Source: a plasmid. Taken from it: a stretch of DNA of 64,000 bases. The notes under the pieces were generated by a model that was not told where the DNA came from, did not search any database, and was given only the letters and a program-made list of their open reading frames with translations. The translations under genes and the position numbers were made by a program. The DNA is taken from the NCBI RefSeq assembly GCF_053078305.1, contig NZ_CP166875.1. One strand, 5' to 3'. Positions 13,751-23,810 of this stretch are shown in pieces. Numbering within the stretch: the first letter of the stretch is position 1; the number at the start of each line of letters is the position of its first letter.

Positions 13751-14356
13751 CTCTGATTCTGACTACTGCAGTGTTGTCCTGTCTGCCGGGCGCACCTTCG
13801 GCTCCCGGCTGCCTGGCGGCATTCGGTCGTCAGGCCCGACTCCGACAGGCAGCTGCTGGCGCACCCGCCAGTCTCCGCCGAACCCGCTGGCGCGGTTTCG
13901 GGCTGTCGCTACGGTCCGATGCGTGAAAACCCCTGGCTTGCAGCGACCGGAACGGTCGCGCCGCCCTTGTCGCGCCGTGGCCTGCGCTCCCGGCATCCCG
14001 GCAAAAAGACGCCGGGATGTAAGGAGCAACGCCGTTTCGCAAACCGCGCTTCACGTCGTTGCGGCGGGTCCCTGCTCATTGCCTGCCGGGTGCCACACAC
14101 CCGTATGAGTCCCTGTCGCCGGGGGCTGATACAGCCACAACCTGCCGCACTGACTGTCCAGGGTAAATGAACAGCCCACAAAATTTTTTACCCAGAACCC
14201 GGTAAAAAATTTTGCGTTCTGCCCAGGACAGGTGCGTCAGGCCGTGGCAGTGATGCCCCTTGCGGCGAAGGTTCTCAAACGGGTGAAGTTCATACCACAG
14301 GGAATACAGCAGCAGGTTCCCGCGAAACGTCAAAACCGCGGCTCCCGAAACTCAAC
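13751..14356 (+). repeat. Frpo/ssi-like GC-rich repeat element, copy 1 (most divergent)
   Basis: About 600 bp nearly identical to 17079..17714 and 22727..23357, including internal palindrome AAAATTTTTTACC...GGTAAAAAATTTT; lies upstream of the 14594-16847 operon. Confidence 0.8.
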
Positions 14357-14593
14357 GGGTGATGTTCTTTAAAAATCAGGATTTATTTCAGGCTCCGGCA
14401 ATACGCATTTATGTGTTCTGTCAGCATCCTGCTGGCAGGTAATGAGAACGCAGGAACAGAAGGAGGAATACACCGGAAAACGTCAGATGCAGATATGAAA
14501 AAAGCAGGTCAGGGACCTGCTTAATCCACGCCGAAGAGACTGTGCAACCAGTCTTTAAGGCACTGTTACCAACCTGTCATAAGGTATCCATTT

Positions 14594-14824
14594 ATGACTG
14601 TAAGCATTGTTTCACCTTCCGCAGCGGCTGTAAAGCCCCGCCGTCATCCCCGTTTCAGACGCGAAGACATCCCCGCGCCGGAAATTGACCCCGTGCTGAA
14701 AGCCTTCGGGCGACACATAGCCCGGAGTTTTCACCGGGGGCGTGGTGTACACATCCCCGCCATGAAAAACACGGCTTTCGGGCAGGTGCTCCGCACACTC
14801 GAACTGAAACGCGCTTTTAACTGA
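14594..14824 (+). CDS. Hypothetical protein, 76 aa
   Basis: ORF downstream of repeat copy 1. Confidence 0.45.
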   Translation: MTVSIVSPSAAAVKPRRHPRFRREDIPAPEIDPVLKAFGRHIARSFHRGRGVHIPAMKNTAFGQVLRTLELKRAFN

Positions 14825-14875
14825 TGAGGTGAGCCGCCCCGCGAGGGGCGGCAACAGACGGAAGGAGAACATTTT

Positions 14876-16237
14876 ATGACATTAGCAGCAATCACCATGA
14901 CCGCCCCGGAAGCCGCCAGCCCTGTGCAGATGTACCGCGCGACCTACTCACCGGATGACAACAAACTGCGCCTGTATGCCGCGTCACGTCTTGACCCGGA
15001 GACGTATAAAAAAGTACATGATGCCGGTTTCCGCTGGGCACCAAAACAGGCGCTGTTTGTCGCGCCAGCCTGGACACCGGGCCGGGAAGACGTGCTTCTC
15101 TCACTTGCCGGAGAGATTGAGGATGAAGACAGTACGCTCGCTGAACGTCAGGAAGCACGGGCGGAGCGGTTTACCGGATACAGCGGAAAGCGGGCCAGTG
15201 AATCCGCACAGGCACTTGATGAAGTGGAAAGACTGGCCGCGATGATCCCGCCCGGTCAGCCCATTCTTGTGGGGCATCACAGCGAACGCCGCGCCCGTCG
15301 TGATGCGCAGCGTATTGAAAACGGCATGAAACGCGCCGTGATGCTCTTTGAACGTGCGGAATACTGGGAAGAGCGGGCGCGGTCGGCACTGCTTCACGCG
15401 AAGTATAAAGAACGTCCGGACGTTCGCTGGCGTCGTATCAAAAAAATCGAAGCTGATTTGCGCAAGGCGGAAAAGACCATCGCACAGTCGCAGAAATATC
15501 TGACGATGTGGCGGGCTGAATCGCTGGATCTGAATATGGCAAAACTCATCAGCAGTCATGACCATATCAGCGCCTGTTTCCCGCTGGACAGGTATCCGCG
15601 CCCGGCAGAAAAAAGCCAGTATGAAGGAAGTCGATCGTTATGGTCGGCCCTGGATGATGACATCATCACCACGGAGCAGGCCCGCGAAATTGCGATCCGC
15701 TGTCATGAACGGCAGATTCAGCGTCAGCAACGCTGGGTTAACCACTATCAGAACCGCCTGATCTATGAGCGTGCCATGCTGGACGAAAGCGGCGGCGTGG
15801 TTACCCGGACACAGGATTTTGAGCCGGGCGGGCAGGTTTTCAGCCGGGGCGAGTGGCTGACCATCATCCGCGTGAACAAAAGCAACGGGGCGGTGAGTTC
15901 AGTCACAACGCCGAATTACAGTTTTCTCGGGTACAGCGGCACGATGAAAGTGACGCCCGATCGCATCACGGACTACAAAGCACCATCGGCAGAAGAGGCT
16001 GCCGTCGCCAGTCAGGCCGCGAAGCGTCCGCCGGTAGTCAACTATCCGGGGGAAGGTTTCCGGGAAATGACAAAGGCGCAGTGGGCCGCCCTGCCCCGGG
16101 ACTGTAAGGCCGTGCGCAGTGTGGCAGAGACAGAAGACCACGGGGCATACCGCTACCGCCGCACAATGGACAATAATTTCCGCCTGGTGAATGTGTATAT
16201 CACCGACATGAAAATCACGGAAATCCCACAGAAATAA
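14876..16237 (+). CDS. Hypothetical leading-region protein, 453 aa (large conserved plasmid protein of unknown function)
   Basis: Long ORF with RBS GGAAGGAGAA upstream; followed closely by a methyltransferase gene. Confidence 0.8.
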   Translation: MTLAAITMTAPEAASPVQMYRATYSPDDNKLRLYAASRLDPETYKKVHDAGFRWAPKQALFVAPAWTPGREDVLLSLAGEIEDEDSTLAERQEARAERFTGYSGKRASESAQALDEVERLAAMIPPGQPILVGHHSERRARRDAQRIENGMKRAVMLFERAEYWEERARSALLHAKYKERPDVRWRRIKKIEADLRKAEKTIAQSQKYLTMWRAESLDLNMAKLISSHDHISACFPLDRYPRPAEKSQYEGSRSLWSALDDDIITTEQAREIAIRCHERQIQRQQRWVNHYQNRLIYERAMLDESGGVVTRTQDFEPGGQVFSRGEWLTIIRVNKSNGAVSSVTTPNYSFLGYSGTMKVTPDRITDYKAPSAEEAAVASQAAKRPPVVNYPGEGFREMTKAQWAALPRDCKAVRSVAETEDHGAYRYRRTMDNNFRLVNVYITDMKITEIPQK

Positions 16238-16283
16238 GGTATATCCCCCCGGGAAATCCCCGGGGGATGACGGAGATAATGAC

Positions 16284-16847
16284 ATGCACAGTCAGTTAAG
16301 AGAACGTATCCGGCTGATGCGCGCAAGGCTGGATAACGCCGCGCCGGTTGCTGAAATCCGGGTTGAATCTCAGCTTTTTGTGACTCCTGCCCCGGTCTGT
16401 GATCGCCTGGTGACGCTGGCGGAAATCAGCAACCGTGATCACATTCTGGAACCCTCTGCCGGCACCGGGGCCATACTGCGGGCGATTCGGGATACCGCGC
16501 CGGAGGCCATGTGTGATGCGGTGGAGATTAACAGCGGGCTGGTCCGGTATCTGCGGGAAAATTTTAACGGTGTCAGGGTACAGTGTGGCGACTTCATGGA
16601 ATGGCTGCCGGTGCAGTATTACAGCCGGATCATTATGAATCCGCCGTTCAGTCACGGGCAGGATATCCGGCATATCCTGCGGGCTTTTTCCCTGTTGCGT
16701 CCGGGGGGCGTTCTGGTTGCTGTCTGTCTCAACGGGCCACGCCAGCAGGAGAAGCTGTTACCGTTTTCTGACGTCCGCGAGGAGCTGCTGCGCGGCACGT
16801 TTGCTTATACCGATGTCCCGACGATGATTATTCGTTTGCGTGCCTGA
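16284..16847 (+). CDS. SAM-dependent methyltransferase (NPPF motif; probable N6-adenine DNA methyltransferase)
   Basis: Motifs LEPSAGTGAIL (SAM binding) and IIMNPPFSHG (catalytic). Confidence 0.8.
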   Translation: MHSQLRERIRLMRARLDNAAPVAEIRVESQLFVTPAPVCDRLVTLAEISNRDHILEPSAGTGAILRAIRDTAPEAMCDAVEINSGLVRYLRENFNGVRVQCGDFMEWLPVQYYSRIIMNPPFSHGQDIRHILRAFSLLRPGGVLVAVCLNGPRQQEKLLPFSDVREELLRGTFAYTDVPTMIIRLRA

Positions 16848-22442: not shown

Positions 22443-22446
22443 GTAG
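22285..22446 (+). CDS. hok: Hok/FlmA-type small membrane toxin (53 aa)
   Basis: Translation [53 protein letters not shown], typical Hok family sequence. Confidence 0.9.
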
Positions 22447-22726
22447 CAACCTGGAGGCGGGCGCAGGCCCGCCTTTTCAGGGCTGATGCTGGTCTGACTG
22501 CACTGAAGCGCCTTTATAAAGGGGCTGCTGGTTCGCCGGTGGCCCCTTTCTCCTTGCTGGCATTGTAGCAGCATGAACAACCAGACTGTCAGGAAGGCCA
22601 CTTCCCTCCGGGAACGGGAATGAACGTGCGCCTGCGGCGCTCGTTCTTTTCCCCCGCCTTCTCTGTTTATGGCCAGTTGTCAGAAATGACATTACCTTTC
22701 CCGTGATTATTCTCTTTTTCTTCCTG

Positions 22727-23357
22727 CTCTGATTCTGACTACTGCAGTGTTGTCCTGTCTGCCGGGCGCACCTTCGGCTCCCGGCTGCCTGGCGGCATCC
22801 GGTCGTCAGGCCCGACTCCGACAGGCAGCTGCTGGCGCACCTGCCAGTCTCCGCCGAACCCGCTGGCGCGGTTTCGGGCTGCCGCTACGGTCCGATGCGT
22901 GAAAACCCCGGGCTTGCAGCGACCGTTCCGGTCGCGCCGCCTCTGTCGCGCCGTGGCCTGCGCTCCCGGCATCCCGGCAAAAAGACGCCGGGATGTAAGG
23001 CGCAACGCCGTTTCGCAAACCGCGCTTCACGTCGTTGCGGCGGGTCCCTGCCCGTTGTTCTGTCCGGTGCCATTCACCTGTTTAAGCCCCTGTCGCCGGG
23101 GGCTGATACAGCCACAACCTGCCGCACTGACTGTCCAGGGTAAATGAACAGCCCACAAAATTTTTTACCCAAAACCCGGTAAAAAATTTTGCGTTCTGCC
23201 CAGGACAGGTGCGTCAGGCCGTGGCAGTGATGCCCCATGCGGCGAAGGTTCTCAAACAGGTGATGGTGAATACCGGAGGGAACAAAAGGCAGGTCCCCGC
23301 AAAACGTCAAAACCGCGGCTCCCGAAACTCAACAGATGATGGGGGCTGAAAACATCA
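22727..23357 (+). repeat. Frpo/ssi-like repeat element, copy 3
   Basis: Near-identical to copy 2; ends in the same conserved leader immediately upstream of the RBS of the 23373 ORF. Confidence 0.85.
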
Positions 23358-23372
23358 GATACAGGAGGAAAC

Positions 23373-23675
23373 ATGAGCGCATTTTCTTTTAACACCGCTT
23401 ATCAGCCAACAGGCGATCAGCAGAAAGACGCAATCGCACAAATCGACATCATGCAGAATCGTGCTGTTCAGGCAAATCTTGCATACCAGAGCAGCCTGGA
23501 TGCGGAAACGCTATTGAAACAGTTATGGCAAATCAATGATGAACTGGGGGAACTGTTGGATAGCGTGGAAAATCACACGCCAGTTATCAGAAAAAAAGCC
23601 AGTGATTTGAGCGCACTGATGATGCTTTTCAGCCAACAGGCCGGTCAGCCTATGACTATGTTGTTGATTTGTTAA
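23373..23675 (+). CDS. Hypothetical protein, 100 aa, downstream of repeat copy 3
   Basis: ORF with RBS AGGAGGAAAC 5 nt upstream of the ATG. Confidence 0.6.
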   Translation: MSAFSFNTAYQPTGDQQKDAIAQIDIMQNRAVQANLAYQSSLDAETLLKQLWQINDELGELLDSVENHTPVIRKKASDLSALMMLFSQQAGQPMTMLLIC

Positions 23676-23715
23676 TGATAATCAGGGGCAGGAAATTAAG
23701 CGAAAGATGCTCTGC

Positions 23716-23810
23716 CCCGGGTTTGCAGCGACCGGAACGGTCACTCCACCCTTGTCGCGCTGTGGCCTGCGGCGGCTCCCGAAACTCAACCGATGATGGG
23801 GGCTGAAAAC
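23716..23810 (+). repeat. Truncated Frpo-like element (copy 4, internally deleted)
   Basis: About 95 bp joining an early segment of the repeat (cccgggtttgcagcgaccggaacggtc...cttgtcgcgc.gtggcctgcg) directly to the conserved 3' leader (gcggctcccgaaactcaaccgatgatgggggctgaaaac). Confidence 0.7.

Follow-up and report, generated by a model that had tools for sequence, protein, structure and literature searches.

The closest described relatives of the elements reported here are the single-stranded DNA (ssDNA) promoters Frpo1 (ssiD, ssp1a) and Frpo2 (ssp1b) of the F plasmid (Masai & Arai 1997; Couturier et al. 2023, PMC9849209), where Frpo2 lies before ssb and Frpo1 before ygeA, which encodes 95 amino acids (aa). 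Single-stranded Frpo recruits sigma-70 RNA polymerase in vitro, and the RNA can prime the complementary strand (Masai & Arai 1997, summarised in PMC7690428 and PMC9849209). In transconjugants, ygeA, ssb and yfjA are no longer expressed early once Frpo1 or Frpo2 is deleted (PMC9849209). The IncI1 plasmids ColIb-P9 and pESBL carry the class-1 promoters ssi1-3 (Bates 1999; Nasim 2004; Wen et al. 2025, PMC12672017); their transcription starts were mapped in pESBL by RNA sequencing and 5′ rapid amplification of cDNA ends, genes controlled by Frpo1/2 were found to be enriched in F, and ssDNA promoters were proposed to form classes 1-3 (PMC12672017). Early conversion near ssp1/Frpo is rifampicin-sensitive, which supports priming in vivo (bioRxiv 10.64898/2026.01.09.698686), and a BLAST survey counted 13,089 homologues of Frpo across 6,006 conjugative elements (PMC11541004). 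Here, we analysed a stretch of 64,000 nucleotides (nt) of the plasmid contig NZ_CP166875.1 (assembly GCF_053078305.1), hereafter the window, in which a sequence-only reading had noticed three near-identical 0.6-kb repeats and one truncated copy, and had likened them to Frpo/ssi. The feature is already known and extremely common, and the window adds no new principle; its by-products are a modular anatomy of the 0.6-kb unit and comparative evidence for structural constraint on the GC-rich hairpin array upstream of the promoter.

The window covers the leading region of an IncF (MOBF/MPF_F) conjugative plasmid. The orientation of transfer was read from one feature:

Positions 25949-25965, minus strand: nic-like sequence GTAGTGTGTGGTGCTTT of the origin of transfer (oriT).

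We take GTAGTGTGTGGTGCTTT to be the F/R100-type nic motif. Given that it lies on the minus strand, the transferred strand (T-strand) is the minus strand of the window, which enters 5′-first from about position 25956 and proceeds to lower coordinates. Measured from this site, the repeats lie 2-12 kb into the leading region. All genes downstream of the repeats are on the plus strand, so that the T-strand is their template, and copies 1-3 thus have the orientation of leading-region ssDNA promoters. The closest plasmid, pRHB24-C09_2 (IncFIA/IncFIC), is 98.3% identical over a 12-kb region, which is matched in at least 5000 plasmid records and of which at least 80% is held by 612. Its annotated order is DNA methylase, anti-restriction gene, [copy 1], DUF3560, methyltransferase, [copy 2], ssb, DUF905, ParB-like gene, psiB, psiA, hok, [copy 3], two small open reading frames (ORFs), DUF945, SLT, traM, traJ and traY. 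The traJ 5′ untranslated region with FinP (26753-26862, Rfam) lies beyond the nic-like site, as does traM.

We mapped the repeats by a direct-repeat search, a three-way alignment and blastn of copy 2 against the whole 64-kb window, and obtained four units:

Positions 13737-14364, minus strand: repeat copy 1, whole unit, upstream of an operon with a 76-aa ORF, DUF3560 and an S-adenosylmethionine (SAM)-dependent methyltransferase.
Positions 17070-17713, minus strand: whole unit of repeat copy 2, its leader end preceding ssb, in the position that Frpo2/ssp1b has in F.
Positions 22713-23356, minus strand: whole unit of repeat copy 3, located downstream of hok/sok, its leader end preceding a 100-aa ORF.
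Positions 23715-23813, minus strand: truncated copy 4 of 99 bp, an L2 module (described below) fused directly to the leader end.

The three near-identical repeats and the truncated copy were thereby confirmed, at coordinates no more than 15 nt away from those first proposed. Compared with copy 2, copy 1 is 93.2% identical over 630 nt and copy 3 97.6% identical over 662 nt (blastn), while the mean column identity of copies 1-3 is 93% in the three-way alignment; blastn with copy 2 found no further copies or fragments in the window. The description of the repeats as GC-rich applies mainly to their left half, with a GC fraction of 0.70, the right half having 0.58 in a leading region of 0.55-0.62. 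A shared leader, GCGGCTCCCGAAACTCAAC(A/C)GATGATGGGGGCTGAAAAC, is common to copies 2, 3 and 4 up to the ribosome-binding site (RBS), followed by the ATG of ssb (17730), the 100-aa ORF (23373) and the 95-aa ORF (23831), but copy 1 keeps it only up to ...GATG and then runs for about 230 nt without a convincing ORF up to the 76-aa ORF at 14594.

We then compared the units with the published F ssiD/Frpo (D90178, 351 nt; supplementary file 4 of PMC11541004). On the T-strand, ssiD aligned over 340-346 nt to each full copy, with 91% identity to copy 2 (17353-17702), 91% to copy 3 (22996-23345) and 83% to copy 1 (14020-14364); over the hairpin, copy 2 is 94% identical to F Frpo2. Since ssiD aligns only to these spans, the Frpo proper is the right-hand half of the 0.6-kb unit; the suggestion that the repeat as such is the promoter therefore stands for the right ~350 nt, which correspond to Frpo as published, and the left remainder falls outside. 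Folding the T-strand of the full copies revealed an imperfect stem-loop of about 320 nt, stable beyond chance, in each of copies 1-3:

Positions 14034-14351, minus strand: main hairpin of copy 1, 318 nt, 121 pairs including 9 G.T, -97.4 kcal/mol versus -85.3 kcal/mol on the complement.
Positions 17368-17684, minus strand: main hairpin of copy 2, 317 nt, 122 pairs including 8 G.T, -99.7 kcal/mol versus -89.9 kcal/mol on the complement.
Positions 23010-23328, minus strand: main hairpin of copy 3, 319 nt, 124 pairs including 8 G.T, -104.7 kcal/mol versus -95.1 kcal/mol on the complement.

The T-strand hairpins are about 10-12 kcal/mol more stable than their complements because of the 8-9 G.T pairs. 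Folded as T-strand DNA, the whole units (661-664 nt) reach -183 to -195 kcal/mol versus about -132 kcal/mol for shuffled sequences, with z-scores of -9.2 (copy 1) to -12.6, so the internal palindromes noticed earlier are real. All three full copies also pass the criterion for ssDNA promoters of PMC12672017, -75 kcal/mol per 300 nt. The repeats had no Rfam match at the gathering threshold (one chance microRNA match, E = 0.9), as expected for an element that is a DNA structure.

To ask whether the hairpin is maintained across the family, we aligned 15 T-strand sequences from IncF, F, IncI, IncK, ColIb-P9, the Serratia/Klebsiella type and an insect metagenome. We found that 97.1% of the cells were paired, versus 42-54% when the partner was slid, with compensatory change in 14 pairs and a covariation score of 0.26 versus 0.04-0.07. 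Covariation is strongest in the distal helix, which is flanked by the conserved CCCTGGAC arm and a mismatched region. In copy 2, the hairpin has an AT-rich tip near 17527-17534 and a conserved -35-like TGGACA on the 3′ arm; TGGACA (5/6) is followed by the covarying helix and then by the mismatched region TGTATCAG, and is the only promoter-box candidate conserved across the family. The covariation and the strand-specific G.T pairs indicate selection on the folded transferred strand.

Taken together, these results indicate that the three full copies are class-1 ssDNA promoters (Frpo/ssiD/ssi/ssp1), each contained in the right-hand 320-350 nt of its unit. We put the probability of this explanation, with copy 4 as a remnant and the units as mosaics (see below), at roughly 0.88. 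The original Frpo/ssi assignment of the full copies is borne out by the ssiD homology, the T-strand orientation, the long stable hairpin and the covariation, in line with the in vivo evidence for the F homologues (PMC9849209, PMC12672017). By sequence and position, copies 2 and 3 correspond to Frpo2 and the Frpo1 region, respectively, and copy 1 is a third copy such as IncFII-type plasmids usually have, as found in p69-2, the example examined; among the matches listed, most Escherichia coli records match the left half at three places.

In the mechanism we propose, the minus strand would enter the recipient 5′-first from oriT, and each element would fold back on itself as a long, imperfect hairpin resembling duplex promoter DNA. 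On this hairpin, host sigma-70 RNA polymerase would start and transcribe towards oriT with the T-strand as the template. Before the complementary strand exists, copy 2 would thus express ssb-psiB-psiA, copy 3 the 100-aa ORF and ygeA/ygeB, and copy 1 the DUF3560/methyltransferase operon; the transcripts may also prime complementary-strand synthesis, and conversion to duplex would remove the hairpin and switch the promoter off. Frpo elements time the first minutes of plasmid establishment, with its anti-SOS, ssDNA-protecting and anti-restriction functions, and are for that reason relevant to the spread of resistance plasmids.

Several points weigh against this explanation. A scan of 15 family members found no positionally conserved TTGACA/TATAAT-like pair with 15-24 nt spacing and no canonical -10; the same scan returned nothing at all in the experimentally studied F Frpo1. 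The activity of copy 1 is predicted from homology only, and its leader differs and the next ORF is 230 nt away. Read-through from copy 3 into ygeA, although most likely, is inferred from finding no terminator- or promoter-like site between the two ORFs. Finally, transcription and priming are ascribed to this plasmid by analogy with the F and ColIb-P9/pESBL homologues, while homology, strand, fold and covariation of copies 1-3 were observed directly.

The locus resembles F in its 83-91% identity to ssiD, in the 317-319-nt imperfect T-strand hairpin, in the leader and in position, with copy 2 in the place of Frpo2 before ssb and copy 3 with the remnant in the Frpo1 region from hok/sok to ygeA. 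It differs from F in its third full copy before a DUF3560/methyltransferase operon, a module absent from F, and in that its ygeA-adjacent copy is internally deleted and a 100-aa ORF cassette with its own full copy lies upstream of ygeA. With ssi1-3 of ColIb-P9/pESBL it shares three dispersed copies heading leading-region operons, the same hairpin architecture (AT-rich tip, conserved CCCTGGAC arm), and left-half modules of which L2 is near identical and L1 94-96% identical; in contrast, the main hairpin is only 46-48% identical, its pairing being kept by compensatory change, and the small hairpin and leader are different. The imperfect Frpo-containing repeats R1-R3 of pO26-CRL125 (Venturini et al. 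2013, PMC3817090) are likewise longer (~460 bp) than Frpo itself, flank leading-region gene blocks and serve as crossover points for block gain or loss, but they lie on an IncI backbone, and neither a truncated copy nor a dissection into modules is reported in PMC3817090. Promoters of class 2 (ssp2, 'Frpo3') and class 3 (ssp3) of F and pESBL also present a T-strand hairpin before anti-restriction or methylase genes, but have no sequence similarity to the three repeats, and ssp2 is reported as a roadblock to complementary-strand synthesis. More distantly, the single-strand origins (sso) of rolling-circle plasmids and G4/phiX-type ssi priming signals are also folded ssDNA recognised by host RNA polymerase or primosome to start the complementary strand, but they are uncoupled from downstream mRNA production and unrelated in sequence.

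We dissected the whole unit by comparing copy 2 with F, IncI (pESI), IncK and other IncF plasmids. Four modules precede the leader:

Positions 17120-17258 (copy 2), minus strand: L1, small GC-rich hairpins, 94-96% identical to IncI/IncK and 35-40% to F.
Positions 17263-17319 (copy 2), minus strand: L2, with the palindrome GCGACCG-TTC-CGGTCGC, 84-100% identical in IncF, F, IncI and IncK; outside the published ssiD.
Positions 17320-17352 (copy 2), minus strand: small hairpin, T-strand CATCCCGGC...GCCGGGATG, between L2 and the main hairpin, 94-97% identical to F and 45% to IncI/IncK.
Within positions 17353-17680 (copy 2), minus strand: main hairpin module, 85-94% identical to F and 46-48% to IncI/IncK.

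L1 lies at about 13787-13925 in copy 1 and about 22763-22901 in copy 3; F has an alternative L1', so that L1 exists in at least two widely distributed versions. At the site of the small hairpin, IncI and Klebsiella plasmids have a different hairpin; at this place (helix 9 of the alignment), compensatory change was seen in 7 and 5 sequences. The Klebsiella IncFII(K) plasmid p628-KPC has the same module order at about 65% overall identity. The small hairpins of L1 and L2 are paired in the Klebsiella-type and insect-metagenome relatives as well (96.9% versus 18-48% when slid), with compensatory change in 9 of 28 pairs; as this comparison used hand-defined hairpins in 8 sequences from 3-4 lineages, and the structure was derived from those same sequences, it is suggestive rather than proof. 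For the left-half hairpins, a single Klebsiella copy has two G.T pairs on the T-strand and copy 1 has one A.C, too few to decide on the folding strand.

Because its small hairpins keep pairing through compensatory change, the left ~280 nt (L1, L2 and small hairpin), which fall outside the 328-351 nt of the published Frpo/ssiD, are probably a structured element in their own right. A Frpo2 fragment without the entire left half still drove an anti-CRISPR gene from the transferred strand (PMC11541004), so the left half is not needed for basic promoter activity. We tentatively raise the idea, which we regard as more doubtful than not, that it is a separate folded T-strand element travelling with ssDNA promoters, in support of which IncF and IncI share 84-100% identity in L2 but only about 47% in the promoter hairpin. 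Possible roles would be a barrier to complementary-strand synthesis or read-through that extends the time for which the hairpin stays single-stranded, priming, or protein loading. As a separate observation, the loop of the L2 palindrome reads GAA in copies 1 and 4 (13950-13952 and 23735-23737), whereas copies 2 and 3 (17283-17285 and 22926-22928) have the reverse complement, TTC. Since the loop orientation co-varies with flanking allelic differences in other plasmids, this suggests a long-standing inversion polymorphism of the hairpin loop and not repeated flipping.

The same palindrome raises the least improbable of the alternatives, which we still consider improbable: that the palindromes are binding sites in duplex DNA for a plasmid or host protein (the ParB-like protein encoded at 18603-20561 being a candidate) and the units conventional regulated promoters or operators. 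Indeed, GCGACCG-N3-CGGTCGC is conserved in sequence, not just in structure, across IncF, IncI and Klebsiella-type plasmids, and it occurs four times in the window versus 0.03 expected. However, we found no strong sigma-70 promoter in the units as duplex DNA, and the F elements are inactive as duplex (PMC9849209, PMC12672017, bioRxiv 10.64898/2026.01.09.698686). The other hairpins of the unit change sequence and keep pairing, which argues for folding rather than duplex recognition. A scan of a genome contig collection for the palindrome GCAGCGACCGNNNCGGTCGC was uninformative, with almost nothing but chance matches in GC-rich genomes and one Citrobacter contig.

Marginally less probable still is that the repeats are kept mainly as recombination or mobile modules, of the miniature inverted-repeat transposable element (MITE) or cassette-exchange kind, with promoter activity secondary. 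Sequence comparison shows each repeat to be a mosaic, with L1, L2, small hairpin, main hairpin and leader as exchangeable modules: L1 shares 96% identity with IncI but about 38% with F, whereas for the hairpin the figures are 94% with F and 48% with IncI. Moreover, the gene cassettes between repeats are variably present in F, pRHB06-C17_3, p69-2 and the window. This mosaicism and cassette presence or absence fit earlier remarks on recombination at these repeats (PMC3817090, PMC9849209), and under our main reading, too, the repeats act as recombination points that shuffle units of promoter and gene cassette within and between IncF and IncI plasmids; a hok/sok-type module has been suggested to penalise the loss of a segment by such recombination (PMC9849209). 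However, the MITE reading was rejected, as we saw no terminal inverted repeats, target duplications or transposase, and the left boundaries of the copies are unequal in the three-way alignment. Recombination alone would not require the hairpin covariation and strand-specific G.T pairs, and the deletion phenotypes in F are promoter phenotypes (PMC9849209). Recombination is therefore better seen as a consequence of the repeats, which we continue to regard as ssDNA promoters.

Two related plasmids illustrate the cassette arrangement. In a 6.3-kb stretch of pRHB06-C17_3 (CP057989.1), positions 1889-4476 hold two tandem units of Frpo with a ~98-aa ORF, a 68-aa ssb fragment is annotated behind the second Frpo copy (3950-4156), and no ygeA homologue was found; the layout is a different shuffle of the same cassettes. 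In Klebsiella pneumoniae p69-2 (NZ_CP025458.1), a group II intron reverse transcriptase/maturase gene (ltrA, 11739-13406) is annotated just upstream of the copy 1 equivalent, on the strand corresponding to the T-strand. As the repeat match resumes only at position 54 of the left half, the intron may have inserted at the repeat's left edge.

The truncated copy 4 had been suggested to define a minimal functional element, and this did not hold up. It consists of 57 nt of L2 (23715-23771, matching 17263-17319) directly abutting 42 nt of leader (23772-23813, matching 17672-17713), so that the ~350 nt between them, with both hairpin arms, the AT-rich tip and the TGGACA arm, are absent. It overlaps only nt 1-32 of the 351-nt ssiD and has no homology to the hairpin. 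Its T-strand folds at -24.2 kcal/mol (z -0.97; 32 of 200 shuffles fold equally well), short of the -75 kcal/mol per 300 nt threshold in a sliding window and without a stable promoter hairpin. Furthermore, no sigma-70-like or terminator-like site was found on the plus strand between the 100-aa and 95-aa ORFs.

That copy 4 is nevertheless a minimal, still functional ssDNA promoter is very improbable to us. In favour of this, the L2 palindrome, which is universally conserved, and the exact ygeA leader and RBS are retained, and copy 4 is inherited stably, since all 60 top-ranked records listed carry the arrangement as a single piece of about 742-747 bp at 98-99.9% identity. But it shares just 32 of 351 nt with ssiD, its fold is at chance level, and one of its L2 stem pairs is broken by a G-to-A substitution. 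The shortest fragment working in vivo, in a Frpo2-acrIIA4 construct, still has the distal hairpin (PMC11541004), which copy 4 lacks. We conclude from sequence that copy 4 is a stable, promoter-less remnant of the copy in the Frpo1 position before ygeA, which suffered an internal deletion; the Frpo1-ygeA junction of F has an identical leader and RBS. Among 4262 records with a match, the 746-bp arrangement is present in one place, to 80% or more of its length, in 71; among the matches listed, most of the remaining ygeA-matching records match from the leader onwards only, like F.

Given that the 100-aa ORF is the IncFII-type occupant of the ygeA site, the window carries both alternatives, the 100-aa cassette and ygeA, in tandem, with the second promoter deleted. 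Because copy 4 keeps the ygeA leader and RBS without a promoter, we consider ygeA most likely to be co-transcribed with the 100-aa ORF from copy 3. The remnant is a natural case in which leader and L2 are insufficient for the fold. Two ideas about its history were set aside. Microhomology at the junction was considered, as the flanks are alike (GCGCTCCCGG/GCGGCTCCCGA), yet the junction CCTGCG|GCGGCTCC needs no shared bases. Relaxed constraint in its L2, which is 89% identical to copy 1, proved mostly allelic, since full-length copies elsewhere carry GGGTTT...GGAAC...GCCACCCTT; compared with this full-length allele, copy 4 has 2-3 private substitutions, among them the G-to-A change.

That the repeats encode small proteins can practically be dismissed: each copy has an ORF of 82-83 aa (13919-14170, 17252-17500 and 22895-23143), that of copy 1 being annotated as a hypothetical protein in CP057501.1, but these ORFs have no NCBIfam match, the IncI/IncK homologues carry 10-nt and 16-nt gaps that destroy the frame, F annotates a different ORF there on the opposite strand, and high GC yields long chance ORFs on both strands, so that we rejected the coding reading and the ORFs are probably spurious.

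The genes behind the copies were annotated as follows, all on the plus strand:

Positions 14594-16847, plus strand: copy 1 operon, with the 76-aa ORF, DUF3560 (14876-16237) and a class I SAM-dependent methyltransferase (16284-16847).
Positions 17730-18251, plus strand: ssb (NF010292, 370 bits), first gene of the copy 2 operon.
Copy 2 operon, plus strand: ssb, DUF905, ParB-like gene (18603-20561), psiB (20613-21050) and psiA (21047-21766).
Positions 23373-23675, plus strand: 100-aa ORF behind copy 3, 69-90% identical to homologues in pRHB06-C17_3 and p69-2.
Positions 23831-24118, plus strand: 95-aa ORF behind the truncated copy, a YgeA homologue differing from F YgeA in 1 of 95 residues.
Positions 24156-25058, plus strand: DUF932/DUF945 gene in the YgeB position, after the YgeA homologue.

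The 100-aa ORF is unrelated to YgeA and is the cassette found at this position in the IncFII-type plasmids p69-2 and pRHB06-C17_3, where F has ygeA. NCBIfam and PHROG searches gave no informative family for the 76-, 80-, 95- and 100-aa ORFs. The hok/sok module lies at 22116-22446, between copies 2 and 3, with sok at 22116-22287 (Rfam, 95 bits) and a Hok-family toxin annotated in the closest plasmid. Copy 2 is bordered on its left by a perfect (CTGCTA)x6.8 microsatellite (17027-17067) that lies within an unannotated 80-aa ORF (16847-17089). The array is longer in pRHB06-C17_3 (3470-3592 of the stretch examined) and therefore varies between plasmids.

Two further T-strand hairpins lie deeper in the leading region. 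The segment at 12150-12449 (minus strand) is hairpin-prone, with -78 kcal/mol per 300 nt and a z-score of -3.97 over 12100-12600, and lies just upstream of an anti-restriction (ArdB/KlcA-like) ORF; judged by eye, it has clear homology to the insect-metagenome candidate Frpo' 4 of PMC11541004, and it is probably a class-2 ssDNA promoter (ssp2, 'Frpo3'). The hairpin at 9575-9874 (minus strand) reaches -90.6 kcal/mol per 300 nt (z -6.75 over 9560-9890) directly upstream of a 227-aa DNA methylase ORF (ATG at 9891), and is probably a class-3 ssDNA promoter (ssp3). Unrelated to the repeats, Rfam also placed two antisense RNAs on the minus strand of the transfer region, AS-traG at 52472-52557 and AS-traI at 62179-62255.

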